Source: Mustelus asterias
Lineage: Eukaryota
Assembly: GCF_964213995.1 (NCBI RefSeq)
Contig: NW_027591173.1
Coordinates: 1 to 64,000, forward strand
Length of the DNA stretch: 64,000 nucleotides
Reading direction: 5' to 3'
A program made the translations under genes and the position numbers. The notes beneath the pieces were generated by a model that made no database searches, was not told where the DNA came from, and was given only the letters and a program-made list of their open reading frames with translations. This document shows, in pieces, positions 980-50,080 of this stretch (position 1 is the stretch's first letter; every line of letters begins with the position of its first letter).

Positions 980-1550
980 TGGGTTTGCGGATCCACAAAG
1001 TGTTTCCAAATCCTCCCAGCCACCGCCTAACGCTGACTCCGCTTCTCCGGGACAAACAAGCGCCAAGGACAGCAATGACACTGCGCATGCTCCACATCAC
1101 AATGCTTGGGGACTGATTGACGGCAGCTCCGGACCAATAGGAAGAGGGGGCGGGGCTGGAGGACCAAGCGGGAGCGGCTGGTCCTCCAACCAATCGGAGT
1201 GAATGAGGGGCGGGGCTGGAGGACCGAGCGGGAGTGGCTGGTCCTCCAACCAATCGGAGTGAATGAGGGGCAGGAAGTGCGGGTAATGGCGACGGACAGA
1301 CGGCCGGTTTTATCTTGGAAACGAGATCAATACGAGGTAGCGGGCGGCGTGCGGGGAATGATAAATGTGGCGGGTGGGTGGAGAGACTTTGTAAACATGT
1401 TGTTCAAACCCAAACCCCGGAAATGAACTTCCCGGTCCCCCCCTTTGTACCAAATGGAGCGGCAGCTGGTAGTGTTAGACCCGGGCTGACTGCCGCCATT
1501 GAGGCTGCATGTGGGAGGCCGGCAGGGATTGTGATCGGAGAGTGAAGCCC
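980..1550. promoter_or_regulatory. CpG-island, probably bidirectional promoter of a ZNF gene pair
   Basis: CpG-rich; NRF1-like tgcgcatgctc, three CCAAT boxes, GGGGCGGGG boxes (60-bp internal duplication 1146-1270), ETS-like caggaagtg/ccggaaatg, YY1-like gccgccatt; homologous in inverted orientation to 47380-47505. Confidence 0.7.
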
Positions 1551-1800
1551 TGACGTCACAATGGGATGGGTGAGAGTGTGAGGTCACAATGGAATGGGTG
1601 AGAGATTGACGTCACAATGGAATGGGTGGGAGTGTGACGTCACAATGGAATGGGTGAGGGTGTGACATCACAATGGAATGGGTGAGGGTGTGACGTCACA
1701 TGGAATGGGTGAGAGTGTGACGTCACAATGGAATGGGTGAGGGTGTGACGTCACAATGAAATGGGTGAGGGTGTGATGTCACAATAGAATGGGTGAGGGT
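1548..1800. repeat. 28-bp minisatellite (9 units) containing CRE palindromes
   Basis: Unit tgacgtcacaatggaatgggtgagrgtg; 6 units with perfect TGACGTCA. Confidence 0.9.
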
Positions 1801-1848
1801 TCCAGATGAGCTGAGACTGGGCTGGAGTCGGGCGATGGCACTGACATG

Positions 1849-2150
1849 TGGCCCGGTGGCACAGTGGTTAGTGCAGCTGCCTAACAGCGCCAGGGACCCG
1901 GGTTCAATTCCAGCCTCGGGTCGCTGTCTGTGCAGAGTTTCTACATTCTCCCCGTGTCTGCGTGGGTTTCCTCCGGGTGTTCCGGTTTCCTTCCACAGTC
2001 CAAGGATGTGCCGGTTCGACGGATTGGCCATGATAAATTGCCACTTGGTATCAGGGGGATTAACAGGTAAATATGTGGATAGGGCCTGGATGGGATTGTT
2101 GTCGGTGCAGGCTCGATGGGCTGAATGGCCTCCTTCTATACTGTATTTTA
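1849..2150 (+). mobile_element. HE1-type V-SINE
   Basis: ggtggcacagtggttagtgcagctgcc...gggttcaattcc head, V-domain, tail ...gggctgaatggcctccttct. Confidence 0.85.
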
Positions 2151-3896
2151 TTATTCATTACTTTTAATTAATTACTATTAATGCTTCTATGAATGAAGGT
2201 GGTCTTGATGATGATGTGGACATGTGGCTGGAAGCTCATCTTGGGATGAACTATTTCACCCTGGTTGTCAACAGTGTGGTTCAGCCTCAGACAGTTGCCA
2301 GGAGGAGAGATAAAGTTGTTGGCGAGGGAGTGGAGTTTGTAGTGGGGACTGAACACAATGGGTTCAGTCTTCCCAGTATTTATATGAAATAAATTTCTGT
2401 TCTTTCAGTACTGGATGTCAGACAAGTCAGGATGGTGTGTGGGTTGGAGAGGAGCTTGGAGCTCATGGTGTTCACAGGGTTTGGAAATTCTGTCAAAGTT
2501 CCTGTTGAGTTGTAGATGTATAAAATCTCTCTCCTCACCTCCGGCCTCTCCTACTTCTCTCTGTTTCCACTCAGAGTGTGGAGATGCCGGCGTTGGACTG
2601 TGGTAAGCACAGTAAGAAGTCTCACAACACCAGGTGAGAATCCATTGATATGGATGGAGATTTACAACTTTTTGGGAATGAAATAGGAAAGAATGTTCTA
2701 TAGAAACTAGAATTGTCTGCTCTGAATTTCTATCCTATACTGATTGTGATGACTTTTGCAAACTCATTTCACAGGATTTTCAATGAGGAATCACAGGCAA
2801 AAATCTCAACGCCACGTCTAGACAGAGTCATATTCCTTGGGATCTGAATATCTTGTAATATGGAACTGTAGCTACGTTATATATTTCCAGACATCTCTTC
2901 CCTCAGAGGGTTGTGAGTCTTTTGGATTTCTCTTCTACAGGGACCAGTGGAGGCTGAGATTCATTGAATATATTCCAGTTAGACAGATCTTTGACTGACA
3001 AGGGTGTCAAGGGTTATGGGGAAAAGAAGATTTTGGAGCAAAAGCTAATATGTGGGGGGATTTCTTCACTGAAGGGTGTGGTAAAGCTTTGGAATTCTCA
3101 ACCCCTGAGGACAGTGAAGCCTCAGTCATTAACTATTTTCAAGAGCGAGATTGATTGGTTTCTAGATATTGAAGGTATCAAGGGACATGGGTTTAGTGCG
3201 GGGAGAATGATGCTGAGGTAGATGAACGAATTATCTCATTGAATAGTTTAAAAGGCTCGATGGGCCAAATGGCCGACTGCAGCTCCTATTTGTTCTGGTC
3301 TCTGTGTCCAGGACAGGAAGCAGTGAGCATGGATCTGTCAATCAGCCTCAATCAGCACCTTCAGGAGAATTGGGAGGGTGAATATTAGATACAGCAGAGT
3401 GAGAATGGAGGGAGAGTGTGTGGGATGGAGATTTACAGCTTTTTGGGACTGAAATAGGAAAGAATGTTCCATGGAAACTAGAATTGCGTGTTCTGAATTT
3501 CTATCCTGTACTGACACTGATGACCTTTGTAAACTCGTTTTACAGGATATTGAAAGAGGAATCACAGACTGAAATCTCAAACGTCACGTCTAGATCTGAC
3601 AGAGTTATATTCCTTGGGAGCTGAATATCATCGGCCTTTGAATCTAGAAGGAGAAATGGTTGTCCGGTCTGTCGATTTGAAAAGATTTCAAACATCAGTG
3701 TAACTGGACAAGCACCAACACACTGCCACACTCGAGTGAGAGTCTTCCAGTGCACTGACTAAAGAGCTTCAACCAGTTACACAGCCTGAATAAATATCAC
3801 ACCATTCACAGCAGGGAGAGACTGTACCCGTGTTCTGTGTGTGGACAAGGCTTCAACTGATTGTCCACCTAAGACAGAGGCAAGGACACCTGCACC

Positions 3897-4907
3897 ATGG
3901 AGAAACCATGGAAATGTGCAGACTGTGGGAAGAGATACAGAGTCCCATCTCTGCTGGAAGCTCATCGGCGCAGCCACACTGGGGAGAGACCATTCACCTG
4001 CTCTCAGTGTGGGAAGGGATTCACTCGGTCATCTGACCTGCAGACACACCAGCGAGTTCACACTGGGGAGAGACCGTTCACCTGCTCTCAGTGTGGGGAG
4101 GGATTCACTCAGTCATCCCACCTGCAGAGACACCAGCGAGTTCACACTGGAGAGAGACCATTCACCTGCTCTCAGTGTGGGGAGGGATTCACTCAGTCAT
4201 CCAGCCTGCAGGCACACCAGCGAGTTCACACTGGGGAGACGCCATTCAGCTGCTCTCAGTGTGGGAAGGGATTCACTTGTTCATCCCACCTGCGGAGGCA
4301 CCAGCGAGTTCACACGGGGGAGAGACCATTTACGTGTTCTCAGTGTGGGGAGGGATTCACTCAGTCATCCAGCCTGCGGACACACCAGCGAGTTCACACT
4401 GGGGAGAGGCCATTCAGCTGCTCTCAGTGTGGGAAGGGATTCACTTGTTCATCCAGCCTGCAGACACACCAGCGAGTTCACACTGGGGAGAGACCATTCA
4501 GCTGTGCTCAGTGTGGGAAGGGATTCACTCAGTTATCCAACCTGCAGAAACACCAGCGAGTTCATACTGGGGAGAGACCGTTCAGCTGCTCTCAGTGTGG
4601 GGAGGGATTCACTTGTTCATCCAGCCTGCAGACACACCAGCGAGTTCACACTAGGGAGAGACCATTCAGCTGCTCTCAGTGTGGGGAGGGATTCTGTGAT
4701 CCATCCAGTCTGCGGAGGCACCAGCGAGTTCACACTGGGGAGAGACCATTCACCTGCTCTGATTGTGGCAAGGGATTCAGTCAATCATCCAACCTGGTAA
4801 AGCACCAGCGAATTCACACTGGGGACAGGCCATTCACCTGCTCCGTGTGTGGGAAGGGATTCACTCAGTCACCTCACCTGCTGAAACACCATCATGTTCA
4901 CGAGTGA
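3897..4907 (+). CDS. C2H2 zinc-finger protein, 12 tandem fingers, no effector domain seen
   Basis: 336-aa ORF of CxxC-x12-HxxxH repeats with TGERP linkers; Kozak caccATGG; upstream acceptor ...tttacag at about 3546; AATAAA at about 4984. Confidence 0.9.
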
Positions 4908-5051
4908 CTGCAAGGACTGAATTTTGCTGTTAATCTCATCGAGGTCCCAACCATTTTCATTGGTGTCTGTTTCTGCTGATGTTAATAAACCCTGGCCCAG
5001 TTGTAAGATTTGTATTGTGGATTGTCTTGTCTGAGTCCTGAACTCGGAAAT

Positions 5052-5217
5052 AAAAACAAGAAGTGCTGTAAAAACTCAGCAGGTCTGACAGCATCTCTGG
5101 AGAGAGAAACAGAGCTAATGTTTTGACACTGAAGAAGAGTCACATTCAACTGGAAACATTAACTGTTCCTGTCTTTACAGATACTGTCAGACTTACTGAG
5201 ATTTTGCAGCAGTTTTT
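5052..5217. mobile_element. Palindromic Penelope-related short element
   Basis: Imperfect inverted arms (tgctgtaaaaactcagcaggtctgacagcatc / gatactgtcagacttactgagattttgcagca) around ctgaaga...gaaac; relatives at about 11815-11915, 23990-24140, 32610-32680. Confidence 0.5.
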
Positions 5218-5227
5218 AGAATGACGG

Positions 5228-6048
5228 TGAATAAAGAACAAAGAACAATACAGCACAGGAACAGGCCCTTTGGCCCTCCAAGCCCGCGCCGCTCCCTGGT
5301 CCAAACGAGACCATTCTTTTGTATCCCTCCATTCCCACTCCGTTCATGTGGCTATCTAGATAAGTCTTAAACGTTCCCAGTGTGTCCGCCTCCACCACCC
5401 TGCCTGGCAGCGCATTCCAGGCCCCCACCACCCTCTGTGTAAAATATGTCCTTCTGATATCCGTGTTAAACCCCCCCCCCGCCCTCACCTTGAACCTATG
5501 ACCCCTCGTGAACGTCACCACCGACCTGGGGAAAAGCTTCCCAGCGTTCACCCTATCTATGCCTTTCATAATTTTATACACCTCTATTAGGTCACCCCTC
5601 ATCCTCCGTCTTTCCAGTGAGAACAACCCCAGTTTACCCAATCTCTCCTCATAACTAAGCCCTTCCATACCAGGCAACATCCTGGTAAACCTCCTCTGTA
5701 CTCTCTCTAAAGCCTCCACGTCCTTCTGGTAGTGTGGCGACCAGAACTGGGCGCAGTATTCCAAATGCGGCCGAACCAACGTTCTATACATCTGCAACAT
5801 CAGACCCCAACTTTTATACTCTATGCCCCGTCCTATAAAGGCAAGCATGCCATATGCCTTCTTCACCACCTTCTCCACCTGTGACGTCGCCTTCAAGGAT
5901 CTGTGGACTTGCACACCCAGGTCCCTCTGCGTATCTACACCCTTTATGGTTCTGCCATTTATCGTATAGCTCCTCCCTACATTATTCCTACCAAAATGCA
6001 TCACTTCGCATTTATCAGGGTTGAACTCCACCTGCCATTTCTTTGCCC
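5228..6048 (-). mobile_element. Young 5'-truncated CR1 LINE (ORF2 3' end)
   Basis: WAKKWQVEFNPDKCEVMHFG...RPHLEYCAQFWSP...ERVQRRFTRM; tail (gttcttt)n; near-identical to 44732-46199. Confidence 0.9.
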
Positions 6049-6912
6049 AGGACGAGAAGGGGGGATGTAATAACTGGAAATGAGAAAATGGCTGAGGCAT
6101 TGAACAGGTATTTTGTGTCGGTCTTCACAGTGGAAGACACAAAGAACATGCCAAAAATTGATGACAGGAAGGCTATGGCAGGTGAGAACCTAGAAACTCT
6201 CATCACGAAAGAGGTAGTGTTGGGCAAGTTAATGGGGCGAAAGGTAGACAAGTCTCCTGGTCCTGATGGAATGCATCCCAGGGTAATAAAAGAGATGGCG
6301 GGAGAAATAGCAAATGCACTAGCGGTAATTTACCAAAATCCGCTGGACTCTGGGGTGGTTCCTGCAGATTGAAAACAGCAAATGTGACGCCACTGTTTAA
6401 AAAAGGAGGTAGACAAAAGGCAGGTAACTATAGGCCGGTTAGCTTCACTTCTGTAGTAGGGAAAATGCTTGAATCTATCATCAAGGAAGAAATAGCGAGA
6501 CATCTGGATATAAATTGTCCCATTGATAAGACACAGCATGGGTTCATGAAGGACAGGTCATGTTTGACTAATTTGGTGGAATTCTTTGAGAACATTTCAT
6601 GTGTAGTGGACAATGGGGAACTTGTGGATGTGGTGTATCTGGATTTCCAGAAGGCATTTGACAAGGTGCCGCACCAAAGACTGCTGCATAAGATAAAGGT
6701 GCAGTGTTATGGGTAATGTATTAGCATGGATAGAGGATTGGTTAACTAACAGAAAGCAAAGAGTGGGGGTAAGTGGGTGTTTTTCTGGTTGGCGATCAGT
6801 GACTAGTGGTGTGCCTCAGGGATCAGTGTTGGGACCGCAATTGTTTACGATTTACATAAATGATTTGGAGTTGGGGACTAAGTGTAGTGTGTCAAAATTC
6901 GCAGATGACACT
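6049..6912 (+). mobile_element. Older CR1 LINE RT fragment (stops/frameshifts)
   Basis: [47 protein letters not shown] motifs. Confidence 0.88.
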
Positions 6913-6975
6913 ATGCCTTATTCACTACCTGGAGAGAATTCAGAGATTGGTGTAAAACTGGGATCTGCTCCTAAA

Positions 6976-7457
6976 TGAAAGGATCAATGTTTACTTTTGC
7001 CACTCTTTTTCGTTTTATATATTTGTAGAAACTTTTGCTTTCTGTTTTTATATTCTGAGCTAGTTTACTCTCATAATCCATCTTACCTTTCTTTATAGCT
7101 TTTTTCATGGCTTTCTGCTGACCTTTAAAGATTTCCCAATCCTCTCAGTTCCCACTTATCTTTGCCACTTTGTATGCATTTTCTTTCAATTTGATACCTC
7201 CTTTATATCCTTCGATATCCATGGCTGATTATCTCTTTTTCTACAGTCTTCCTTATCACTGGTATATACTTTTGCTGAGCACTGTGAAAGATTGCTTTGA
7301 AAATCCTCCACTGTTCCTCAATTGTCCCACCATAAAGCTTTTGTCCCAGTCTACCTCAGCCAACTCCTCCTTCATCCCTTTATAGTCTCCTTAGTTTAAG
7401 TACAAGACACTGGCATTGGATTTTACCTTCTCACGCTCCATCTGTATTTTAAATTCA
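6976..7457 (-). mobile_element. Degraded CR1 ORF2 fragment
   Basis: Resembles CR1 endonuclease-RT spacer region on the minus strand; degraded. Confidence 0.5.
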
Positions 7458-7459
7458 AC

Positions 7460-8030
7460 CAAGGAAGGAATTCAATTACCCATCCCTGCTGGAAACTCAT
7501 CGACGCAGTCACACTGGGATGAGGCCATTCATCTGTCCCCAGTGTGGGAAGGGATTTGCTCACTCATCTACTCTGCTGAGACACCAGCAAATTCACACTG
7601 AGACGAGGCCATTCAATTGCTCTTGTGTAGGAAGGGATTCAGTTGGTCATCCAGTCTCCTGACACACCAGCGAGTTCACACCGTGGAGAAGCCATTCACC
7701 TGCACCCAGTGTGAGAAGAGATTCGCTGGACTCATCCAACCGAGCAATACAATGGCGAACTCACAACGAGGAGAGGCCATTCACCTGCTCCCAGTGTGGG
7801 AAGGGATTTAATAGTCATCCAAACTAGCAGTACACCAGCGAGTTCACACTGGAGAGAGGCCTTTTACCGACTGTGTGTGTGGCAAGAGATTCATTGACTC
7901 ATCCAGCCTAGCAATATACCAGCGAATTCACAAAGGGGAGAGGCCATTCACTTGCTCCCGGTGTGGGAAGGGATATGTTACCTCATCCACTCTTCTGAGA
8001 CACCAGCGAATTCACAAGGAACTATTGTGA
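7460..8030 (+). pseudogene. C2H2 ZNF pseudogene (paralog of 19885-20646)
   Basis: Finger/linker repeats with frameshifts and stops; ends [21 protein letters not shown] versus [21 protein letters not shown]. Confidence 0.85.
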
Positions 8031-8354
8031 TTGTATTTTCCTGTTGAGCATATTCAGACTAAACCATGTTCCTTTGGGTCTGTTTCTGCTGAATTGAAAA
8101 ATAACTTCAGCTCTGTTTAGGTGTTAATATAGTTGGTCTGAGAAGAGGAGGATTTGGGGTCAGGAAACTTGTACAAAGCATCAGATTATCTGAACAGCAG
8201 AGAATTTTGTACATGGAAGGAAACAACTCCGTTCTCAATCACATTATGGAGAAACCGTGCAAATGTGGAGACTGAAGTGATTGGTGGACCATTTTTTTTT
8301 GGTTTTCTAATTCAGCACATTTTTATTTTTATTCGTTTACTATCATATTATGGT

Positions 8355-8612
8355 GAGCACTCGGGTTTGATTCCTGGCTTGGGTCACTGTCTGTGTGGAG
8401 TTTGCACGTTCTCCCCGTGTCTGCATGGGTTTCCTCCGGTGCTCCGGTTTCCTCCCAGTCGGAAAGACATGCTGGTTCGGTGCATCGGCTATGCTAAATT
8501 CTCCCTCTGTGTATCCAAATAGGAGCTGGAGTGTGGCAACTCGGGGATTTTCAGTAACTTCATTGCTGTGTTAATGTAAGCCTACTTGTGACACTAATCA
8601 ATAAACTTAAAC
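8355..8612 (+). mobile_element. V-SINE with alternative 3' tail (5' truncated)
   Basis: V-domain followed by ...cagtaacttcattgctgtgttaatgtaagcctacttgtgacactaatcaataaac. Confidence 0.8.
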
Positions 8613-8714
8613 TATATTACATGTAGCTCCGCTGTATCTTTCCAGTCAGACTCATTACAGCTCAGAAGGAATGCATTGGGTTTCTCAAACCTATTTGACT
8701 CTTTGTAGACGAGT

Positions 8715-9176
8715 TACACGGCCTGAAAAAAACATCACAACATGCAGCGTGGGGAGAAACTGTAGACATGTTCTGTGTGTGGACGAAGCTTCAACCTGGA
8801 GAGATACGAGGACTCTGGCACCATGGAGAAACTGTGGAAATGAGAGGATTGTGGGAAGGGATTCAATTACCCATCTGTACTGAAAACTCATCAATGCAGT
8901 CACACTGGGGTAGAGGCTGTTCAGTTGTGCTGACTGTGGGAAGGGATTCACTCAGTCATCTGCTCTGCAGAAACAGCAAGTTCACACTGGAGAGAGACCA
9001 TTCACCTGCTCTGAGTTTGGGAAAGGATTCACTGAGTCATCATCTGTGGAGAAACCAGAGAGTTCATCTTGGTGAGAGGCCATTTACTGGCACTCAGTGT
9101 GGGAGCAAAAGAATGATTCAACCCCTGTTGAGACATTATGGCAATCACTCAGATTAGACCCATTATCTGCTCTGGG
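8715..9176 (+). pseudogene. C2H2 ZNF pseudogene (MEK-start type), truncated by LTR element
   Basis: ggcaccATGgagaaactgtggaaatga (early stop), decayed fingers, ends at LTR start. Confidence 0.75.
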
Positions 9177-11450
9177 TGTTAACTAAATTATTTGAGATTA
9201 AATATATACAAATGGAGGGCATTGATTGGATGAGTGCAAATAAAGAGACACTGTCACAGAGTGGAGTTGGGAGGTATGTACTTGTAATGTTTTACTCTGC
9301 AAATAAATCTATTCCAAATAAAGGTTAGCTTCAGTTTCTTCCTTCACCATAACGCTGTCAGGATTATAACATGGTAACAGGGAATGTTTGTCTCATGGTG
9401 AATTTTAAAAACTAAAGGAAAATATATTTCAGGCAGGAGCTTACAATCCCAGTAGCTTTTGTGAGAAATGGTTGAAAGCCAGTGGGAATTGTCAGGGTCT
9501 GATTACCCGCTGATGTTCTTGAAGTCTGAACCACACGATCAATGTAAGAATGAAGTGGAGATGTGGACACGGGTTACATCCCGACTAAGGAGAAAACAAG
9601 GTCTGGCCTTGGCACTGTCACTTCTTGACAAAAAGATCAGAAGCAAAGTATTTTGTGAGCTGGATGTCCATCAGTTGGATACTGATGAAGGTTTGAATCT
9701 TTTATAAAGATTCATTGAGATTTACAAGATAGATGATCTATTGGTTGCCTATGAAGCATAATTGGACTTTGACAGGTTTTGTGTGAGGGTGAAAGCATCT
9801 TTAGTGCGTCTGGATATCGCAACAAAAGACAGGATTGGAACAGCGCTAATAGGTGATTGAACCCCAGCAATGACTGGGGAACTATTAACAGGTGTTTCAG
9901 GTCTGAATGAAAACGTCATCGTGCAAGCATATGAGTTAGGAGCAAGCACTGGCCACTCAGCCCCTCGTGTCTGCTCTGTCGTTCAGTAAGATAATGGCTG
10001 ATCTGATTGTAACCTCAACCCCAAATTCCCACTTACCCCGTTAATCTTTCACCCCCTTGATAATCAAGAATCTATCTCGCTCTGCCTTCAAAATATTCAA
10101 AGGGATTCTGACAGCAACTTTTGAGGAAGAGTTCCAGGAACTCTCAACCCTGTGGAAAAAAAACTTTCCTCATCTCTGCTTTAAATGAACTTATTTTAAA
10201 CAGTAAGCCCTCATTCTCGATTCTCCCACTAGAGGAAACATGCCCTCCACATCCACCCTGTCAAAATGCCTCAGGATCTTATATGTTTCAGTCAAGTTGC
10301 CTCTTACTCATCTAAACTCCAGGGGACAAAACCCTCACCTGTCTAACCTTGCCTCATCATCCCATTCCACAGTGACTGCACCTCGACAGTGTGTGGATCA
10401 GATTGAAGATGTTATCCATATTCACCTCATGGTGAAGAGTGACACAAGGTTAAGGGGTATGAAAGGTTTCCAGTTGGTGATATCAATAGATTGAAGCCAT
10501 TAAAGAGAGTGTTGATTCGATGTAAAGTAGCTGGAGTCAGCACTCCAGGACTGGTGTAGTCTGGTGTGTCTGACAGTGAACCTGCTCAGTTTAATGTTGA
10601 GTGAACCTTCCATGAAAAAGGCACAAATGCAACTGGACATGGAACAAGGTATGATTGTTTACTCAAATCAGGACATTATTGTGTCCTCTTAACAAAACCT
10701 GATGTTTCTAATCCTCGGGTTCGAGAAGGATTCATGGCATCAGGTGAAGAGAAACAGAAAAAAATTACAAATTGTCTTAAAGCTGCACAAACAATTTGCT
10801 CGTCCTATCGAACAAAGATTAAAAACCCTGCTACAAGATGCAAGGTTGGTTGGTGAAGAGTATACGAGACTCAGAACAGATTAGTACAAAGTATCGGACA
10901 AAGCCATTACATCCTTCCCTTGGCTCATGAAGAAGTTGCTGTGCATCTAAAGGTATGAGACAAAGACAGAATTATTTTCATTCTACACTTTATCGATATG
11001 GTAACCCAACTTAGTCTTTCTCCAATAATACATGGTAAGGACAAAAGGGTGATTCTAGAACAAGTCATTGAGAAGTGGACAGGGACTGGACCTGGGGCAC
11101 CAGCTAAGGTTCTGGCTGATAATGGAGGGGAATTTGTTAATGATGAGTTTTGAGATGTGTGTAAAAACATGAACATTCTAGTCAGGAACACAGCAGCTGA
11201 AAGTCCTTTCAGTGATGGACTCTGTGAAAGGAATCACTCGGTGATCGATGAAATGCTGCAGAAAATCTTAGCTGGTCAGCCAAACTGCAAGTTGATAACT
11301 GCACTGGCCTGGACGGTTCATGTAAAGAATTCACTTCAGATGGTTGGAGGGTATAATCCTTGTCAATTGGTTTGGGAGAAATCCCAAATTACCCTCTGTG
11401 CCGGGTGATAAACCTGCTTTCGAAGGGATGACAATTAGCACAATTTTTAT
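9177..11450 (+). mobile_element. Decayed Ty1/Copia-like LTR retrotransposon (5' LTR 9177-9371, PBS, gag and integrase remnants)
   Basis: LTR TGTTA...TAACA with AATAAA, then tggtaacag (tRNA-iMet-like PBS); gag-like NEVEMWTRVT...QGLALALSL; integrase core LADNGGEF...TAAESPFSDGLCERNH; CR1 3' fragment inserted at about 9925-10360. Confidence 0.72.
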
Positions 11451-20646: not shown

Positions 20647-20659
20647 TTGGATTTCAAAT

Positions 20660-26266: not shown

Positions 26267-26356
26267 CTGTGTGAAAGGAGAAGGTGGTAAGAATCGGAGT
26301 GGGAATAGCTTCTGTCGCGCCTGCTCCACTATTCATCATCAACCTCATCTCCACTT

Positions 26357-29885: not shown

Positions 29886-29889
29886 ATGC

Positions 29890-37752: not shown

Positions 37753-37759
37753 GTTGAAA

Positions 37760-38180
37760 CTTTCTATTGGTTCCTGTGACTCTGCGGGAACTGGGACCTC
37801 ATTGGAAACAGACACTAAAGCCCCGCCCTCTATTGCGTCACCAAGGGGGGCACGCATGCGCGCCATTCCCCGTTGGAACAAGATGGCGGCCGTTAACTAC
37901 GCCTTTGTCCCGGGAAACAGACACGGAGCTGCAGACACGGGACCTTCAGGTCAGTATTTGGGGTTTGAGGCTTTCACCACGTGTTTCGAAACATTCCCCG
38001 TTCCACGGTTGGCACTATCACTCCCTCTCGGTCACCATATTCTTACCCGTTTGGAGATACGACGAACAACAAACACTCCGTTGGCCATTGCTGCGCATGC
38101 TCCGAATACAGAGCGCTATTGCGTTTGCGCACTGCCCTGGATAGGGGACATCCACCGCCGCGGAGAACTCTGGGTAAAGT
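37760..38180. promoter_or_regulatory. CpG-island bidirectional promoter between ZNF 35568(-) and ZNF 39807(+)
   Basis: ATTGG boxes, ccccgccc, cgcatgcgcg, perfect YY1 caagatggcggc, tgcgcatgctc, donor-like caggtcagt and gggtaaag. Confidence 0.7.
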
Positions 38181-38869
38181 ACCCACCATCTACTGTCCAA
38201 ATTAATTTTTCTGCTATGATGTGGGGATTAGGGCGGCGAGGCAAATAAATGAAGTTAGGAACCAAATAAAATGAAAATCCAAGTGCACAGATCCTCCATA
38301 GAAAGAAGGAAAGTGCGAATTGGTGGAGAATCAAGAGTTCACAAAGCAGTGGCAAGAACTGCAGAAACCAACCCCTGCAATCACATAGGAACTGACCAAG
38401 TGAATCCTATCAGTGAGTAATTGTATGACCTCGTGTATGACTTAGATCATATATTTTAGTCATGTTAGCACACTAATAAAACTGAATTACTGGAAACAGG
38501 CTGCAGCTCTTTTCATTTTCATTTACTACAGTATGCAGGTGTCACTGGCATCTATTATCATTGCTGAATACTTTTGAGAAGGTGATGATAATCTGTCTTC
38601 CCTAACCACAGCAGCCCATGGAGGTTTCGGATGGTTTCTGGGTCCCCAGAATATTAGCCTGGGCCTTTGGATTACTAGTCCTGTGATATTACCACTGTGT
38701 CACCATCTTCCATCACAAAAAATACTCATTTTAGCATTTCCTGCTATTGAGGCAATTTTGTATCCAAAATGTAACTTGCTCATGGATCTCTTGAGATTTG
38801 ATGTTTCTGCCCAGTCTGCCATGTGGGAACACTGTAGATGTGGATAGAATGTTTCCTTGTGTGGGAGAA

Positions 38870-39806: not shown

Positions 39807-40313
39807 ATGGAGAAACCATGGAAATGTGGGGACTGTGGGAAGGGATTCAAATACCAATCTCGGCTGGAATATCATCGACACACTCACACTGGGGAGAGAC
39901 CGTTCCTCTGCTCCATGTGCGGGAAGGGATTCACTCGGTCATCCGACCTTCTGAGACACCAAACCACTCACAATGAGGAAAGACCATTCACCTGCTCCAC
40001 GTGTGAGAAGGCATTCATTCAATCATCCGATCTCAGGATACACCAGCGAGTTCACACTGGAGAGAGGCCATTCACCTGCTCTGACTGTGGGAAGAGATTC
40101 AGTCAGTCAGCCCACCTGCTGGCACACCAGCGAGTTCACACTGGGGAAAAGCCGTTCACCTGCTCTGAGTGTGGGAAAGCATTCATCCATTCATCCCACC
40201 TGTTGAGACACCAGCGAGTTCACACTGGGGAGAAGTTGTTTAACTGCTCCATGTGTGGGAAGGGATTCACTCAGTCACCCCATCTGGTGAGACACCAGCG
40301 GCTTCACAAATGA
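39807..40313 (+). CDS. C2H2 zinc-finger protein, 6 intact fingers
   Basis: [10 protein letters not shown]...HQRLHK; caccATGG; acceptor ccacag at about 39467; AATAAA at about 40435. Confidence 0.87.
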
Positions 40314-41177
40314 CTGCAGGGATTAGATTCTGCTGTTAATCACATCCAGAACTGAACCATGTTCATTCTGACAGTTAGTGTTTCCTTCTGCTGAAAATAA
40401 TTTAACTGAAGTTTTATATTCTGGTTATATGTCCAATAAACCAGCTTTGTTTTGAACCTATTGTTTTAGATTTTTATCTTTCCCACCCAAGTGTTTAACA
40501 TCACCTGTCTGGGGCTCAAAAAGGACAATCTGGGGGAGGATCGTACGGCAGGAACGGAACTTCAGGCTGGACACAGTCCAGGAACACGGTGACCATCCAC
40601 ATTTTGTCCCTGTTGAATAAAATCAAACACAGCGTTTATTCTCCATCCAGTTATCTGACCTTTTCTATTTGTACAGCTTACACTGATCTCCCTGGTAACA
40701 GTTATTGTGCTTCCTTCCCTCATTTCCAATTAGTTATTATAAAATCTGTTTCTTCCAATCTATCTGGAACATCAGGTGGACCTTCCCAAGTGGAATTGAG
40801 ACAGAGGTGAGATCAGCCATGATCAGATTGAATGGTGGAGCAGGCTTGAGGGGCTGAATTGCCGACTCCTGTTCCTAGTTCTTACGTTTTTCAGTTAACT
40901 ATCATCACTGTCCCTGTGAGGGAATGTTTCTATCCTGGACTCGCTGTGATGGATTTTGGAAACTCCTTTCAAATGGACTTAGAGGGGGAGGATTTACACA
41001 TCGTAAACCTAAACTAAGAAAAATATTTGTCTTTGATCAATCTTTAACTTTGGACATTTTTTTCACAGGACTTCAGAAGCTCAGTGGTGGAAGGCAAAAA
41101 ACTCAAACAAAACATCGCAGCAGCATCTGACGCTATCACCTAAATAATTGTAATCCGAATATTATTGTAAGTTGAAC

Positions 41178-41810
41178 ATGGAAGGGGAAAGCACGGTTAA
41201 CAGTGGGGAGAAACCATACACGTGTTCTGTGAGTGGACAAGGATCCAGCCCATCACCTGGCCTGTCAAGACACCAGCACAGTCAAGCTGGGGGAAACCAT
41301 GGAAATGTGGGGACTGTGGGAAGGGATTCATTTGTTCATTCCCCCCCGAAACACCTGCTGAAACACAAGTGGGCTCACACTGGGGAGAGGCCTTCTTCCT
41401 GCCATAAGTGTGCGAAGGGATTTACTACCTCATCCATCTTGTTGACACACCAGTGTGTTCACACAGGGGAGAGGTCATTCACATGCCCTGAGTGTGGGAA
41501 GGAATTCACTCGTTCATCTATCCTGCTGAATCACCAGCGAGTTCACACTGGGGAGAGAGCTTTTACCTACCTGCTCTGAGTGTAGAAAAAGATTCACTGA
41601 TTCATCCAACCTGCTGAAACACCAGCGAATTCACAATGGGGAGAGGCTGTTTATCTGTTCTGAGTGTGGGAAGGGATTCACTCAGTCATCTATCCTGCTG
41701 AAACACCCAGCGAGGTTCACACTGGGGAGAGACCGTTAACCTGCTCTGTGTGTGGGAAGGAATTTACTCCATTATCTCAGCTGCTGAAACACCAGCAAGT
41801 TCATGAGTGA
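41178..41810 (+). pseudogene. C2H2 ZNF pseudogene (MEG-start type)
   Basis: [16 protein letters not shown]..., several frameshifts across about 7 fingers. Confidence 0.82.
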
Positions 41811-42670
41811 CTGGATTTGCTGTTAATCACACGCAGGACTGAACCGTTCTCATTGGCACCTGTTTCTGCTGATGTTAATCAGCCCCAGCCCAGTTGTAGA
41901 GCTTATGTTGTGGGTTAAAAGTCAAATAAACCGGCGATGTGTGAAATACGGTTTGATGAATGTTTATAATTTCTCTGACACAGGTTAGTTCCTTTTGAAG
42001 AGCTCCCCTCCTCCACTGTCTCCTCCATCGTCACCTCAACAGCAAGTATGAGGACTCATGGAGCTTCTTTGTCACTTAGTCAGGGATTCTGCTGTAATTG
42101 CTGCTGTTAATCACATCCAGGACTGAACCATGTTCATTCTGACAGTCCCTATAACTGGAATGGAGACTGTCAAGTAACTGAGCTTTGTTTAAACCTATTG
42201 TATATTTTTGTCTTTCCCACCTGAGTGTTTAACATCACTTGATTGGAACTCAGAAAGGGTAATCTAGGGGAGGATCATATGGCAGGAAGAGAACTTCAAC
42301 CTGGACACAGTCCTTCAGGGTCACACTGAGAGGGACAAACAGCACTTTGGTCTTTCTAGAAAACCATAAGACATCGGAGCATTAGGCCACTCAGCCCATC
42401 GATTCTGCTCTGCCATTCAATCATGGTTGAAACTTTTCTCATCCTCATTCGCCTGCCTTTTCCCCATAACCCCTGATCCCCTAATTAATCAAGAACCTAT
42501 CTATCTCTGTTCTAAAGACACTCAATGACCCGGCCTCCACAGCCTTCTGCGCTAAAGAGTTCCACAGATTCACCACTCTCTGGCTGAAGAAAGAAGGGCA
42601 TGGACAGGGTGCACTGGGAGCAGCTGTTCCTCTTAGTTGAAGAGTCAGTTATGAGGGGACACAAGATAAA

Positions 42671-42810
42671 AGCACAGTCAAGCTGGGGGAAACCATGGAA
42701 ATGTGGGGACTGTGGGAAGTGATTCATTTGTTCATTCCACCCCCCCTCCCCCTTCCCCCCCCCCCCCCCCCCCCCACCCCCCCGGCTGAAGCACAAGTGG
42801 GCTCACCCTC
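42671..42810 (+). pseudogene. Duplicated ZNF fragment with poly-C expansion
   Basis: Matches 41274-41380 with an expanded C tract. Confidence 0.75.
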
Positions 42811-43980: not shown

Positions 43981-44261
43981 CCAAAATCAGTTGTGAAACA
44001 CAAATAATCTGATTTTAAGGCTTCCTGGTGCAATAAACTGATCATGCTCTTCCCAGCTAACACCATTTCACACCCGCATCTGTTGGATTTTAATGTGATT
44101 GTCCAATGTAGAAACCTTGCATCTTTTAGCCACTTTGAATTCATACACGCCCTTCTCCCTCCACCCCCTTCTCCCTCCCCCCCCCTTCTCGCTCCCCCCC
44201 CCCCCCCACCCCACCTAAAGAGATTGTCTTTGAAATCAGTCGTTCCTGAATGATATAAAAT

Positions 44262-44607
44262 TGTGTATAAAATTATGAAGGGCATAGATAGAGTGAACAG
44301 TGGGAAGCTTTTTCCCAGGTCGGAGGTGACGAACACAAGGGGTCACGGGTTCAAGGTGAGGGGGGCAAGGTTAAACACAGATGTCAGGGGGACGTATTTT
44401 ACACAGAGGGTGGTGGGGGCCTGGAATGCACTGCCAAGCAAGGTGATTGAGGCGGACACGCTGGGATTGTTTAAGACTCATCTAGATAACCACATGAACA
44501 GACTGGGAATAGAGGGATACAAAAGAATGGTCTAGTGGGCACATGAGCAGCGCAGGCTTAGAGGGCCAAAGGGCCTGTTCCTGTGCTGTATTGTTCTTTG
44601 TTCTTTG
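44262..44607 (+). mobile_element. CR1 3' fragment
   Basis: YKIMKGIDRV...EGYKRMV plus tail. Confidence 0.85.
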
Positions 44608-44731
44608 ATGACAATATAAGCTTCTCTCTAACCTGTCCAAAACCTCCTGTCAGTTCATTAATTGAAACCAGGGACTCTCTCCCTTTTTAACCTGTCGGCA
44701 CGGTTATTCCTTTAATTTACCTCTTGAATTA

Positions 44732-46199
44732 AACAAAGAACGAAGAACAATACAGCACAGGAACAGGCCCTTCGGCCCTCCAAGCCCGTGCCGCTCCCTG
44801 GTCCAACTAGACCATTCTTTTGTATCCCTCCATTCCCACTCCGTTCATATGGCTCTCTAGATAAGTCTTAAATGTTCCCAGTGTGTCCGCCTCCACCACC
44901 TTGCCTGGCAGCGCATTCCAGGACCCCACCACCCTCTGTGTAAAATATATCCTTCTGATATCTGTGTTAAACCTCCCCCCCTTCACCTTGAACCTATGAC
45001 CCCTCGTGAACGTCACCACCGACCTGGGGAAAAGCTTCCCACCGTTCACCCTATCTATGCCTTTCATAATTTTATACACCTCTATTAAGTCTCCCCTCAT
45101 CCTCCGTCTTTCCAGGGAGAACAACCCCAGTTTACCCAATCTCTCCTCATAACTAAGCCCCTCCATACCAGGCAACATCCTGGTAAACCTCCTCTGTACT
45201 CTCTCCAAAGCCTCCACGTCCTTCTGGTAGTGTGGCGACCAGAACTGGACGCAGTACTCCAAATGCGGCCGAACCAACGTTCTATACATCTGCAACATCA
45301 GACCCCAACTTTTATACTCTATGCCCCGTCCTATAAAGGCAAGCATGCCATATGCCTTCTTCACCACCTTTTCCACCTGTGACGTCACCTTCAAGGATCT
45401 GTGGACTTGCACACCCAGGTCCCTCTGCGTATCTACACCCTTTATGGTTCTGCCATTTATCGTATAGCTCCTCCCTACATTATTTCTACCAAAATGCATC
45501 ACTTCGCATTTATCAGAATTGAACGCCATCTGCCATTTCTTTGCCCAAATTTGCAGCCTATCTATATCCTTCTGTAGCTTCTGACAATGCTCCTCACTAT
45601 CTGCAAGTCCTGCCAATTTTGTGTCGTCCGCAAACTTACTGATCACCCCAGTTACACCTTCTTCCAGATCGTTTATATAAATCACAAACAGCAGAGGTCC
45701 CAATACAGAGCCCTGCGGAACACCACTAGTCACAGGCCTCCAGCCGGAAAAAGACCCTTCCACTACCACCCTCTGTCTTCTGTGACCAAGCCAGTTCTCC
45801 ACCCATCTAGCCACCTCCCTCTTTATCCCATGAGATCCAACCTTTTTCACCAGCCTACCATGAGGGACTTTGTCAAACGCTTTACTAAAGTCCATATAGA
45901 CGACATCCACGGCCCTTCCCTCGACAACCATTCTGGTCACTTCTTCAAATAACTCCACCAGGCTAGTGAGGCATGACCTCCCTCTCACAAAATCATGCTG
46001 ACTATCGGTAATGAGTTTATTCCTTTCTAAATGCGCATACATCCTATCTCTAAGAATCTTCTCCAACAACCTCCCCACCACGGACGTTAAGCTCACCGGT
46101 CTATAATTACCCGGGTTATCCTTCCTACCCTTCTTAAATAACGGGACCACATTAGCTATCCTCCAATCCTCTGGGACCTCACATGCGTCCAGTGACGAG
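44732..46199 (-). mobile_element. Young CR1 LINE, 5'-truncated, uninterrupted RT frame
   Basis: About 460 stop-free codons: [46 protein letters not shown]. Confidence 0.92.
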
Positions 46200-46265
46200 A
46201 CACTGTTTGTGAATTGTTTGATGTTCCCATATCTCAGTGACAAATATTGAGCTGTTTGCTCCACG

Positions 46266-46679
46266 CAGTAAGAAGTCTCACAACCCCAGGTTAAAGTCCA
46301 ACAGGTTTATTTGGTCGCACAAGCCACTAGCTTTCGGAGCACTGCTCTTTCATCAGGTCAGTGGGAGTTCTGTTCACAAACAGGGCATATAAAGACACAA
46401 AATCAATTTACAAAATTTACAGCCTGCATACAATACGCATCTCTTTAACCTGTGCTTGACCCCCTCTCCACTCACATTGTCTGTACCTTTAAGACTTGAT
46501 TACCTTAAAGACTCGCATTCCAACCATTATTTTGTAAATTGAGTTTGTGTCTGTAAATGCCCTGTTTGTGAACAGAACTCCCACTCACCTGATGAAGGAG
46601 CAGCGCTCCGAAAGCTTGTGGCTTGTGCTACCAAATAAACCTGTTGGACTTTAACCTGGTGTTGTGAGACTTCTTACTG
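46266..46679. mobile_element. Penelope-like element with about 150-bp inverted arms, each holding a hammerhead core
   Basis: cagtaagaagtctcacaac...tttacaaaat / attttgtaaa...gtgagacttcttactg. Confidence 0.8.
46586..46620 (+). ncRNA. Minimal type I hammerhead ribozyme motif (mirror copy on minus strand at about 46324-46360)
   Basis: CAC-CTGATGA-A-GGAGC agc GCTCC-GAA-AGCT-T-GTG. Confidence 0.65.
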
Positions 46680-46837: not shown

Positions 46838-47279
46838 GTGTTTGCTCCGCACCCACAGGGCTCCATCTGTTTGCTCCACACCCACAGGGCTCCATCTGTT
46901 TGCTCCGCACCCACAGGGCTCCATCTGTTTGCTTCGCACCCACAGGGCTCCATCTGTTTGCTCCACACCCACAGGGCTCCATCTGTTTGCTCCGCACCCA
47001 CAGGGCTCCATCTGTTTGCTTCGCACCCACAGGGCTCCATCTGTTTGCTCCACACCCACAGGGCTCCATCTGTTTGCTCCGCACCCACAGGGCTCCATCT
47101 GTTTGCTCCGCACCCACAGGGCTCCATCTGTTTGCTCCGCACCCACAGGGCTCCATCTGTTTGCTCCGCACCCACAGGGCTCCATCTGTTTGCTCCGCAC
47201 CCACAGGGCTCCATCTGTTTGCTCCGCACCCACAGGGCTCCATCTGTTTGCTCCGCACCCACAGGGCTCCATCTGTTTG
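46838..47279. repeat. 29-bp minisatellite (about 15 units)
   Basis: tgtttgctccgcacccacagggctccatc. Confidence 0.95.
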
Positions 47280-47339
47280 AAGCCACAAACAGAAAGGTCC
47301 AGTTTTCTCCTGGAGTTTGACACAAAGCAGCTTTCACAA

Positions 47340-47765
47340 TGATGCAGAGTTTCAGCCAATGAGAGCGATCCGGAGTCAGCCCCGCCCCTCATTCACTCCG
47401 ATTGGTTGGAGGACCAGCCGCTCCCGCTCAGTCCTCCAGCCCCGCCCCCTCTTCCTATTGGTCCGGAGCCGCCGTCAATCACAGTATGGAGTACATGCGC
47501 AGTGTGGATTAGCTTTGACCGATTCACAGACGGTGAGTTTGCGGCGTGGCCGGAGAGATAGAGTTGGCGGGTGGATGGAGAAGCTTCATAAGCACTTGTA
47601 ATGGACCTGAAAGCAGCATAAGGTGCTAACGGTCCCGAATTTGTATCTCTGCGGCAACAGCTGCTCCGCGCCGCTTCGCTCGGTAACAAACCCGGGTTAA
47701 CGGCCACCATCTTTGGGGCGATGTGCAGGAGTGCGCATGCTCGCTGCTTCCTGTCAGCAGGAGGA
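47340..47765. promoter_or_regulatory. CpG-island promoter upstream of ZNF 49034
   Basis: Inverted homolog of 1080-1215 (GC boxes, CCAAT, NRF1-like), plus ccaccatctt, tgcgcatgctc, cttcctg. Confidence 0.68.
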
Positions 47766-48249
47766 GAGAATGTTGTGAATTTCTCTCCGGGACTGACAGG
47801 GATGGACTTTGGAAACTCCTTTTACAGGGAGTTAGAAGGGGAGGATTTACACACAGAAAACTCAACCCAAGAGAAATATTTATCTCTTCTAAATTTCTGT
47901 CCTGGATTAACAGTGATTTTTGTTTTGTAATCTTGATTTACAGAATACGACAATTGGAAAATTCAAACCGAAGATCACATCACATCTGGCAGCCATCCCG
48001 TTCTTTAGAATCTGAATATCATCAGCTTTTGAATGTGAAAGGTCAAAGGTTTGTCTGCTCTGTCTGTTGGGAACGATTTCAGATTTCTGGGGTGGCACAG
48101 TGGTTAAGCATTACTGCAACACAACGCCAGAGACCCAGGTTCGATTCCAGCCTCGGGTGATTGTGTGGAGTTTGCATGTCCTCCCCCATATTTCCTCCCA
48201 CAGTCTAAAGATGTGCAGATGAGGTGGGTGGCCAATAACTGGTGTGAAG

Positions 48250-48690
48250 ATAATCCCAGAAACTATAGTCAGTTTAGACTTGGCGATAGGGAAAATTCCT
48301 GAAACAATAATTGAGGACAAATTTAATAGTCACCTGAGTAAATGTGGGTTAATAAGGAAAGCCAGCATGGATTTGTGAAGGGAACTAACCTGCTTAACCT
48401 GTTTTTTGATGAGGTTACAGACACCAGTGTTGAGGATAATGCTATTAATATGGTGAACATGGACTTCCAAAAGGCATTAGGTAAATTGCTGCACAACAGA
48501 CTTAGGAACAAAGTTATGACTCGTGGAATGAAAGGGACAGTAACAACATTGACACAAAATTGTCCACGGGACAGGAAACTAATGAAATATTGGTTAATGG
48601 ATGTTTGGGAGTTCTCAGGAGCTGGTGTTAACACCCTGCTCTTCCTAATGTTCACAAATGACCCAGACCTTGGTGTTCAGGAACAGTTTT
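48250..48690 (+). mobile_element. Old CR1 RT fragment (partial SINE at 48089-48235)
   Basis: ESQHGFVKG...MDFQKAL. Confidence 0.65.
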
Positions 48691-49033
48691 GAAATTAGTG
48701 GGGACAGTCTTCTGTAGACCCAGACCGTGTGGCAGGTTCCCTTCTCCGAAGGATATCAGTGAATAAGTTGCATTTTTACAACAATCCAGCAGTTTTCATT
48801 GTCACTTTTTCCCAGTGACGGACGTACAAATGACCAGATTAATTCAGTTCAATTTCACAAACTGCCTGTGTTTTTATGAGTTCTCTCTCACTCCCTTTTT
48901 TTCTGTTTTGAAACAGTTATACAGGGTTTTAGAAGAGCAGGATTTGCAGTCGGGAAATTGAAACGAAACATCACATCACAACCTGGTGGAGTTTTCCAAT
49001 GTATCGTAACCTGAATATCATTTGATTTTGAAC

Positions 49034-50080
49034 ATGGAAGGAACAAGCACCGTTCACAGTGGGGAAAATCCATACACGTGTTCTGTGTGTGGACGAGGCT
49101 TCAGCCAATCATCTGACCTGTTGAAACACAAATGCAGTCAATCCAGGAAGAAACCGTGGAAATGCAGGGATTGTGGGAAGGGATTCAAATCCCCGTCTGA
49201 CCTGGAAAGTCATTGGCTCAGTCACACTGGGGAGAAACCGTTCACGTGCTTCAAATGTGGGAAGGGATTCACTCGTCAATCCTACCTTCTGACACATCAG
49301 CGACTTCACACTGGGGAAAGGCCGTTCACCTGTTCTGTGTGTGGGAAGGGATTCATTCAGTCATCTTCCCTGTTGAATCACCAGCGAGTTCACACTGAGG
49401 AGAGACCAATTAAATGCTCAGACTGTGGGAAGTGTTACAAATGTTCTGGGGAACAGGTGCGCCATCAACGTGTTCACAGCAATGAGAGGCCATTCACCTG
49501 TTCCTTGTGTGGGAAAGGATTTACTCAGCAATACAAACTGCTGACACACCAGCGAGTTCACACTGATGAGAGACCTTTTACATGTCCAGACTGTGGAAAA
49601 CACTTTAAAAGTTCCCAGGACTTGATGCAGCATCAACTTGTTCACACTGATGAGAGACCGTTCAGATGCTCTCACTGTGGGTCTGCATTCAAGCGATCGT
49701 CTCACCTCACTGTACACCAGCAAATTCACACTGGGGAGAGGCTGTTCACCTGCCCTGAGTGTAGCAAAGGGTTTACTCAGTCATCCGTCCTTCTGACACA
49801 CCAGTGTGTTCAAACTGGGGGGAGACCATTCATCTGCTCTGAGTGTGGGAAGGGTTTCCCTTCCTCATCCAAACTTCTGATGCACCAGCACGTGCACACT
49901 GGGGAGAGACCGTTCACCTGCTCTGTGTGTGGGAAGGGTTTCACTCAGTCATCGAACCTGCTGACACACCAGCGAGTTCACACTGGGGAGAGGCCGTTCA
50001 CATGTGCTGAATGTGGGAAGGGATTTGCTTATTTTTCTGTACTGATGAGACACCAACAAGCTCACAAACAACGACAATGA
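49034..50080 (+). CDS. C2H2 zinc-finger protein, 12 fingers (two lack the final His)
   Basis: [19 protein letters not shown]...HQQAHKQRQ; acceptor atacag at about 48924; AATAAA at about 50188. Confidence 0.88.

Follow-up and report, generated by a model that had tools for sequence, protein, structure and literature searches.

Finger-only C2H2 genes, often arranged head-to-head around CpG islands, form a large elasmobranch family with a distinctive first finger

The window, as we call the whole 64,000-nucleotide stretch analysed here, begins at an end of contig NW_027591173.1 of Mustelus asterias. The six zinc-finger (ZNF) open reading frames named in a preliminary description of this DNA have the coordinates given there, are all intact, and carry a purine at −3 and G at +4. 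The plus-strand frame 3897–4907 encodes 336 aa with 12 fingers and starts with MEKPWK within a former linker; the acceptor and non-coding 5′ part of its finger exon (3546–3896) consist of decayed fingers with nine in-frame stops. It is followed by 14023–14631 on the minus strand (202 aa, 7 fingers; acceptor 14859), 19885–20646 on the plus strand (253 aa, 8 fingers; acceptor ~19660), 35062–35568 on the minus strand (168 aa, 5 canonical fingers and one degenerate; acceptor 35919), and 39807–40313 on the plus strand (168 aa, 6 fingers; acceptor 39469). A solo plus-strand gene at 49034–50080 (348 aa, 10 fingers) uses a second start type, MEGTST. At the left edge, cassette homology identifies minus-strand positions 1–140 as the intron end and acceptor cassette (acceptor near base 4) of an off-window gene; a 99.8% identical copy on C955 has an intact 8-finger minus-strand frame ~0.4–1.0 kb to the left of base 1. 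The three divergent pairs proposed earlier are real, including the one with the off-window member, and so are the interleaved pseudogenes: two broken plus-strand arrays in 7509–9157 (7509–8017 and 8699–9157), a frameshifted plus-strand array with its own acceptor and no island (41147–41810), and further broken or fragmentary arrays at 21206–21420, 42662–42743, and 47828–48081.

Against a window-wide CpG observed/expected ratio of 0.34, all four islands of the preliminary description were recovered, including the one ahead of the solo gene, and a fifth that it had missed (31931–32520) covers the start of EMC4 rather than of a ZNF gene. Island 1 (941–1540) has a core of repeated CCAAT and GC boxes (1134–1255) with homologous, outward-facing arms on either side. 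Its left arm (907–1085, minus strand) contains an NRF1-like site and a non-coding exon 1 ending in the donor CAG/GTTAAC at 907/906, which is present in 20/20 paralogs, and its right arm contains a predicted plus-strand exon 1 (1272–1336), whose putative donor at 1336 retains GT in 20/20 paralogs. Island 2 (15571–16100) is flanked by outward predicted donors at 15473 (minus) and 16283 (plus), with GT in 15/15 and 19/19 alignable paralogs, respectively (of 20 each); its partners lie ~0.9 kb and 3.8 kb away, an inequality due to LINE fragments in the longer-side intron. In island 3 (37721–38240), whose left arm is homologous to the arms of island 1, candidate donors are found at 38047 or 37898 (minus) and 38173 (plus); a reading of this island as two crossed promoters was dropped after alignment of the arms. 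Island 4 (47301–47860) is an inverted island-1 core (97% over 105 bases) with a right arm only, followed by the truncated finger-exon start at 47828–48081. Pairwise comparison shows homology among the arms of islands 1, 3, and 4, with z values of 9–16 in four of six pairings and of 3.4 and 4.6 in the remaining two. The EMC4 promoter was considered as the source of the ZNF arm and rejected (z = 3.4 against one arm and ≤1.1 against the other three).

The arms bear NRF1-, CCAAT-, GC-, ETS-, and YY1-like words, and a single ZNF143 pattern run on the five islands matched none of them. Donors and motifs together predict that a single island carries divergent first exons separated by less than 1 kb and accompanied by motifs usual for bidirectional promoters. 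Human bidirectional promoters are described as enriched in NRF1, NF-Y, GABPA, and YY1 words (PMC3082894); the divergent shark genes surround the same motif set, as in vertebrate bidirectional CpG-island promoters, but differ in that island 1 has arms that share homology with one another and that its promoter exists in many copies. The homologue of the left-arm donor is spliced to a ZNF acceptor cassette in contigs of runs X2 and X3 from related species, the joints being those of paralogs at 80% likeness in runs that we can only guess to be RNA; no right-arm joint occurs among the matches listed for the spliced contigs. For pair 3 itself no run with RNA was listed, which speaks neither for nor against its expression, and the RNA support comes from a paralogous locus. 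One X5 contig begins exactly at the plus acceptor, and one X2 contig has 25 unaligned letters before a plus acceptor, a weak hint at most. The claim of shared islands with outward first exons on both sides is thereby supported, with one of these exons joined to a finger exon in related species. Both arms very probably fire, and the promoter of a pair is likely a bidirectional CpG island. Head-to-head pairing with an island is a family-wide pattern: in four regions picked regardless of islands, the interval between neighbours contains an island in 8 of 10 divergent, 2 of 11 convergent, and 8 of 14 tandem cases (Fisher p = 0.009), and 47 of 60 island paralogs have minus/plus flanks. This arrangement probably had a single origin, by inverted duplication of one promoter arm with its gene.

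The window is collinear with paralogous blocks of 75–80 kb that contain several pairs, solo genes, EMC4, and a minisatellite. EMC4 (26231–32219, minus strand) has five exons; joining these by hand at their ends gives an open frame of ~180 aa, and the Pfam matches to EMC4 have E = 9e-21 and 7e-15. This housekeeping gene is a passenger of the duplicated block: its exon 3 has 106 matches in the genome, located in the ZNF blocks and many with stops. A match on C25 was rejected as the parent locus, being an exon-3 fragment only. The 56-bp minisatellite (55183–64000) spans 21.5 kb at this locus and 1.6 and 0.1 kb in two paralogous blocks; we discarded it as a likely protein target, as it is block-embedded and variable in length and nothing ties it to the proteins. 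The homology of one block begins within the island-1 core, at base 1201, and this block has a different left partner. Copies of islands 1 and 2 each have three or more partner types, and in 14 of 20 island-1 copies the partner lacks a start codon (four of these are frameshifted). Pair 3 is kept in 9/9 close copies on the left side, with a plus array in all nine.

Genome-wide, the exact start site has 2,048 matches (control, 0), and C71 carries 11–17 arrays of five or more fingers per 200 kb. The suggested chondrichthyan expansion is borne out as an elasmobranch one by this count and by the occurrence of the same finger in other sharks and a ray. Like TE-targeting tandem ZNF expansions, the family is large, clustered, lineage-specific, and accompanied by pseudogenes. 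A literature search whose coverage excluded most subscription journals found no published description of this finger-only shark family.

The products consist of fingers only, as had been proposed. Pfam searches of the stop-to-stop frames of the six window genes returned zinc-finger-type families exclusively, and in a profile search an in-frame stop precedes the fingers in 66 of the 67 arrays with a located acceptor (90 arrays examined, 23 with no acceptor located). Reading phases after the main acceptor are mixed. The 5′ stretch from acceptor to first finger changes as fast as intron (in pair 3, 0.121 against 0.108 per site; both are tree counts, as pairwise UTR rates share the window's branch). 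A context of ACCATGG or AACATGG surrounds 115 of 137 starts; in MEKPWK genes the start codon arose inside a former linker, and in 40 of 177 long frames no methionine precedes the first finger. After the last finger a single residue remains in 86 of 132 proteins. Stops and intron-like 5′ evolution argue against an upstream exon that encodes a conserved acidic domain at the N-terminus. No KRAB domain is found in frame with a finger array, as judged from Pfam on the window frames, the 66/67 stops, and the island-spanning frames; in the genome, a search run without a positive control gave 0 KRAB matches among 76 candidates. A start-less subfamily has 34–41 open codons before finger 1 with an omega of 0.66, calculated leaving out one misregistered gene and one further misregistered step. 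The earlier term "effector-less" holds for known domains and may not hold for the first finger, which could itself act as an effector.

Coding sequence in this family is selected, in line with the earlier suggestion of non-neutral evolution. Zero-fold sites change at 0.35 of the intron rate (p = 6e-12), with one gap event in 1,614 coding bases versus 18 in 3,621 intron bases, and 31 of 34 copies of three window genes are intact (14023–14631, 10/11; 35062–35568, 12/12; 39807–40313, 9/11). Young copies, both pair-3 genes included, are under purifying selection. The proposed dN/dS test at contact residues gave a divided answer. Between fingers (716 steps), contact positions have an omega of 1.2–1.4 versus 0.4–0.5 in linkers, values that pool synonymous sites and would be inflated where gene conversion homogenises these. 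In the youngest copies of whole genes, these positions show conservation instead (omega 0.25–0.49), which is not a fast arms race. A conserved framework with diversifying contact residues is present between fingers, and the proteins very likely bind DNA with changing specificity.

The first finger stands out from the rest of the array. In 121 of 132 proteins a W-type finger occupies the first or second place, and it never occurs further in. Four of its non-contact positions, picked after inspection of the data, have an omega of 0.19 (15 changes, 78 expected); second, internal, and last fingers reach 1.0–1.7 there, with no difference in synonymous rate. Of the first finger's positions, 6 of 18 remain significant after correction. 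Among the conserved residues, Glu+5 and an inter-cysteine Asp are acidic, and their positions are free to vary in all other finger classes, even in the last finger, which is just as terminal. The contact positions of the first finger have an omega of 1.86, so it probably touches DNA. The type is kept across sharks and one ray: in proteins of other elasmobranchs, retrieved with the first finger itself as query, Pro+1 and Glu+5 occur in 20 of 22 cases, and the named species are Heterodontus, Cetorhinus, Pristiophorus, Scyliorhinus, and Hemitrygon. MEKPWK genes retain the first finger in 91/91 cases and genes with other starts in 30/41; in the former the finger is linked with the start codon, and this link suffices to account for its being kept there. 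Searches of the ESM Atlas and the PDB with finger 1 returned generic C2H2 matches only. We tentatively regard the first finger as a candidate built-in cofactor dock rather than a structural cap only, at somewhat less than even probability.

We slightly favour the following explanation, drawn from sequence comparisons. Finger-only C2H2 genes, commonly standing head to head with a likely bidirectional CpG-island promoter between them, make up a very large elasmobranch family that would have spread inside multi-gene segmental blocks; the proteins would read repeat DNA sequence-specifically, and the specialised first finger would recruit a cofactor. The chance that transposons or other repeats are the main targets seems about even to us. 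In its boldest and rather unlikely form, this would be a third, independent vertebrate ZNF genome-defence system in sharks and rays, with at least a thousand genes, which shed its effector exon, may dock a silencing cofactor on the first finger, and by divergent promoters might switch on two new specificities per duplication or promoter swap.

An explanation that dispenses with cofactors is that the proteins have no effector at all and act simply by occupying DNA, where they would keep off activators, polymerase, or transposases; the first finger would then be conserved only as a structural cap or general DNA clamp. The absence of any domain except fingers, the single residue that usually ends the protein, and the diversifying contact positions of a first finger that probably touches DNA all suit this account, as does one fixed first-finger residue at the lysine position that generally contacts phosphate. 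Glu+5 and the inter-cysteine Asp, acidic residues whose positions vary freely in the other finger classes, and the retention of this finger across sharks and a ray count against occupancy, and we consider it unlikely. Nor do we give much weight to an upstream coding exon with an unrecognised effector, spliced in frame to the fingers through a different acceptor in the manner of KRAB- and FiNZ-ZNFs. Ahead of its coding frame the finger exon does read as a decayed acidic segment followed by fingers, so the ancestor had a longer N-terminus; the open codons of the start-less subfamily, an alternative acceptor in one X2 contig, and the 232 residues ahead of the fingers in ray gene model P0019 point in the same direction. 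Against these stand the stops after the main acceptor with their mixed phases and the start contexts. Among all loci compared, moreover, a single open frame of ≥55 aa crosses the cassette and has no relative among longer proteins (a weak search), and five island-spanning frames have no Pfam match; this reading is scarcely probable.

The preliminary description had made the pair itself the functional and duplicating unit, with two co-expressed proteins on one promoter. The 47 divergently flanked island paralogs and the retention of pair 3, with both its genes under purifying selection, are what such a unit would leave. As a unit of duplication, however, the pair is largely refuted: copies travel in 75–80 kb blocks with EMC4 and solo genes, the homology of one block has its edge within the island-1 core, islands have exchanged partners of at least three types, most island-1 copies have a start-less partner, and island 4 is one-armed. 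We find this model highly improbable. It is just as improbable, in our estimate, that the family owes its size mainly to a chromosome that is unstable and duplicates segmentally, selection keeping frames intact only for functions that are weak or dosage-neutral. The amplification of EMC4, a housekeeping gene, in the same blocks, the many broken arrays, and the identical contact residues of young copies are consistent with it; the intact copies, the slowed 0-fold sites, and a contact omega above 1 between fingers count against it.

KRAB-ZNF genes of tetrapods, lungfish, and coelacanth are clustered, evolve by birth and death, and have one finger exon and diversifying contacts (PMC3971581, PMC10380595). 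The shark genes share all these features and differ in lacking a KRAB frame able to join the fingers; families lost in cartilaginous fishes were reported as enriched for KRAB in a whale-shark paper (PMC8455134). Cyprinid FiNZ-ZNFs and ray-finned KRAB-like ZNFs are lineage-specific expansions on one chromosome arm, with two exons and selected finger arrays (10.1101/2022.11.29.518450), and the shark family resembles them in its lineage-specific expansion, two-exon layout, and selection in the arrays. The upstream FiNZ exon encodes an acidic domain of 28 aa, a possible binder of TRIM33 (PMC11603059), whereas the shark exon 1 is non-coding and its acidic-looking segment is decayed UTR; TE repression has been demonstrated by knock-down for FiNZ-ZNFs, while the shark family is known here from sequence. 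"ZNF-only" polydactyl vertebrate models likewise lack BTB, SCAN, and KRAB and number hundreds per genome (PMC3971581, Table 1). Human "ZNF-only" genes are mostly old and conserved, and counts from unfinished genomes may be fragments; in the shark family, by contrast, effector absence is enforced by stops, the copies are young and, judged by start sites, number in the thousands, and a signature first finger marks them.

Wells et al. attribute TE targeting to finger plasticity rather than to a given accessory domain and refer to dozens of uncharacterised families (10.1101/2022.11.29.518450). The shark family offers a direct test of this view: it lacks any accessory domain, is subject to selection, and presents one concrete candidate surface, finger 1. 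If the repeat role is true, cartilaginous fishes would cease to be a gap in the picture of vertebrate TE control. In itself the head-to-head layout is of modest significance, being most likely an old inverted duplication spread through segmental copying. With its 106 exon-3 matches, EMC4 illustrates how strongly the blocks amplify bystanders and is a warning against adaptive reading of gene-family counts in shark assemblies.

The genome spans 3.68 Gb, and the window forms the first 64 kb of its contig. All six intact finger ORFs of the preliminary description were recovered (3897+, 14631-, 19885+, 35568-, 39807+ and 49034+), with Pfam matches solely of zinc-finger type, as its view of pure finger arrays required; the closest named relatives are shark and ray proteins. 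The partner it had postulated to the left of the window is an intact 8-finger minus-strand ORF on contig C955, whose copy of window positions 1-14240 is 99.8% identical and extends further left. Five CpG islands stand out, namely the four already described and one covering the EMC4 start (31931-32520). Young LINE fragments with reverse-transcriptase frames, up to 97% alike and presumably CR1/L2-like, are inserted in introns and spacers (5216-6900, 16840-19100, 33350-34240, 44260-46300 and 50260-51800).

The proposed absence of an effector domain was borne out for the main acceptor. A profile built from five window acceptors located this site in 67 of 90 arrays, and in 66 of the 67 one or more in-frame stops precede finger 1, with all three phases represented. 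The 230-370 bases that follow the acceptor resemble a stretch coding for an acidic segment and the decayed remains of as many as three fingers, with the usual start codon occupying the former TGEKP linker (MEKPWK). This 5' part accumulated 0.121 substitutions per site versus 0.108 in the intron for pair 3 (35568-/39807+), and 0.053 versus 0.077 for the minus gene of pair 2 (14631-/19885+; trees of 10 copies each), and contains indels in copies of both. Given these stops and the intron-like 5' part, an upstream coding exon joined through the main acceptor is excluded, transcripts being unneeded for this conclusion, which leaves aside the 23 of 90 arrays without a located acceptor and the 40 of 177 long frames without a Met. 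In the other 137 frames a Met precedes finger 1, and for 115 of these the context is ACCATGG or AACATGG. An alternative acceptor was seen in one contig. Predicted leaders of three genes contain 2-6 upstream ATGs, none extending to the main frame, and the MEKPWK-type start with its fossil leader recurs in Heterodontus, Pristiophorus and Scyliorhinus gene models. Several genes share a short cassette ~600 bases upstream of finger 1 (window 3312-3377, plus strand, and paralogs); it has a good acceptor (ctctgtgtccag|GACAGGAAG) and is possibly an optional non-coding exon.

RNA comparison used L121, a repeat-free paralog of pair 1 (the pair at island 1). Contigs of two presumed RNA runs from different studies and organisms (X2 and X3) jump from its left-arm donor, homologous to window position 907/906, to the finger-exon start. 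For this paralog and related species, rather than the window's own genes, such jumps support a transcript in which a non-coding exon 1 is spliced to the finger exon. No right-arm joint was present among the joints listed for L121 (98 further joints lie outside that set).

As anticipated, the ORFs do not evolve neutrally. Omega among young same-length copies ranged from 0.33 (three window families) to 0.41 (17 clusters), with 0.25-0.49 at the DNA-contacting positions; 0-fold sites change at 0.35 of the intron rate (0.38 without CpG sites), and three window genes were checked in 34 copies, 31 of them intact. Between fingers (780 unique fingers, spanning-tree steps up to 14 differences), omega was 1.23-1.40 at contact positions, 1.25-1.7 at positions -1, 3 and 6, 0.40-0.46 in linkers and ~1 for the closest steps; values for the structural class are circular, since the search pattern fixes Cys and His. 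The picture from these sequence comparisons is one in which copies would be retained after duplication and specificity would shift over longer times.

The family-specific first finger is under protein-level constraint. Of 132 unique proteins, 121 have a finger whose first aromatic residue is Trp, always one of the first two in the array. In this finger, positions -1, 3 and 6 are diversifying (omega 1.86). Four others, the Lys that follows the Trp, the Asp preceding the second Cys, Pro+1 and Glu+5, together give 0.19, versus 1.67, 0.99 and 1.17 at these four positions in second, internal and last fingers, at equal synonymous rates. After correction, 6 of 18 free positions tested were constrained, and Pro+1 and Glu+5 are kept in 20 of 22 such fingers from 15 elasmobranch proteins (found with this finger as query). 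Such constraint makes the finger a candidate cofactor dock, the rival reading being a structural cap. In layout and evolution the family resembles KRAB- and FiNZ-type expansions, but it lacks the coding effector exon that defines them. ZNF-only gene models appear as a known class in parts of PMC3971581. Sharks go unmentioned in the main text of the Wells preprint (10.1101/2022.11.29.518450), and the literature searched yielded no published description of this family. That the family acts on transposons is, in our judgement, an even call.

The proposed divergent pairing around islands held beyond the window. Across six regions, four of which share paralogs, islands separated 22 of 25 divergent neighbour pairs, against 5 of 24 convergent and 17 of 29 tandem ones. 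Four regions chosen without regard to islands gave 8/10, 2/11 and 8/14 (p=0.009); two of them, on contig C71, were picked by position and the others, one on C23 and one on C12, through start-site hits. Pairs are thus common, but so are tandem and solo genes that have an island to themselves. Among the retrieved paralogs of islands 1-3, 20 for each island, 47 of 60 had a minus array to the left and a plus array to the right within ~5 kb (19/20, 13/20 and 15/20, respectively).

The outward-facing arms of islands 1, 3 and 4 (the last at 47301-47860, preceding 49034+) form one sequence family, in which an NRF1-like word is followed after ~190 bases by GTTAAC and a YY1-like word; island 2 and the right arm of island 3 consist of other modules. 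Since the island-4 arm matches the island-1 arms strongly (z 11.6 and 10.4) and these match each other weakly (z 3.4), the sequence suggests that an old inverted duplication of one promoter-plus-gene may have produced the two-armed island. Outward GT donors are retained on both sides of islands 1, 2 and 3, moderate evidence given that the copies are 88-99% alike. Parts of PMC3082894 describe human bidirectional promoters with a motif set matching that of the islands. Islands are mosaics of modules, as seen in a reversed island-2 piece fused behind island 1 (L121:5459-5790). Short tandem repeats adjoin island edges: a 28-mer with six TGACGTCA words (window 1551-1800), a 38-mer (15663-15786) and a 29-mer occupying the place of island 4's missing left arm (46839-47279).

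The promoter-plus-pair duplication unit of the preliminary description was not supported. Two C71 blocks are collinear with the window contig at 92-99% identity, the first over positions 7348-82049 and the second over 1201-82047; besides pairs 2 and 3 they carry solo genes, pseudogenes, a minisatellite and EMC4. The second of them starts within the island-1 core and has a different left partner, and partner genes vary among island copies. What duplicates is therefore a segment of several genes, and exchange at islands reshuffles it. In 14 of 20 island-1 copies the left partner has no start codon (4 are frameshifted). An amplified 13-16-finger subfamily at L121:3560-3663 (minus strand) and 13 other island-1 loci has no ATG before finger 1 and Leu in place of the Trp; at omega 0.66, it may be decaying or initiated otherwise (non-AUG or downstream start). 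EMC4 exon 3 was matched by 106 of 139 candidates; nearly all of these lie on island-bearing contigs, and many contain stops. The window EMC4 (26231-32219, minus strand) is apparently intact, its five exons, joined by hand, giving an open frame; a genome search with exon 3 revealed no complete copy outside the ZNF cluster. The CpG-free 56-bp minisatellite (window 55183-64000, on to 76689 of the contig) has lengths of 21.5, 1.6 and 0.1 kb across three paralogous blocks and is a local expansion inside the cluster.

An exact search with the 26 bases spanning the most frequent start codon gave 2,048 genomic matches (reversed control, 0), a figure that captures part of the family and is not a gene count, because near-identical overlapping contigs (C1141, the window contig, C955 and C2366) are also in the assembly. 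On C71 (20.4 Mb) these matches begin at 3.8 Mb and continue along the contig, with more clusters on C23 and C12; island copies extend to 19.6 Mb of C71 and onto many unplaced contigs. Four 200-kb samples of C71 held 11-17 arrays of at least 5 fingers each. Long Heterodontus models named zinc finger protein 850/271/721-like (P0006-P0015) contain 2 or 3 first-type fingers 350-830 residues apart and are likely merged neighbouring genes. On C12, three very long CpG-rich tracts (54.52-54.54 Mb; L191-L193) of 5-6 kb and 350-500 CpG each lie between ZNF genes and are probably tandem arrays.
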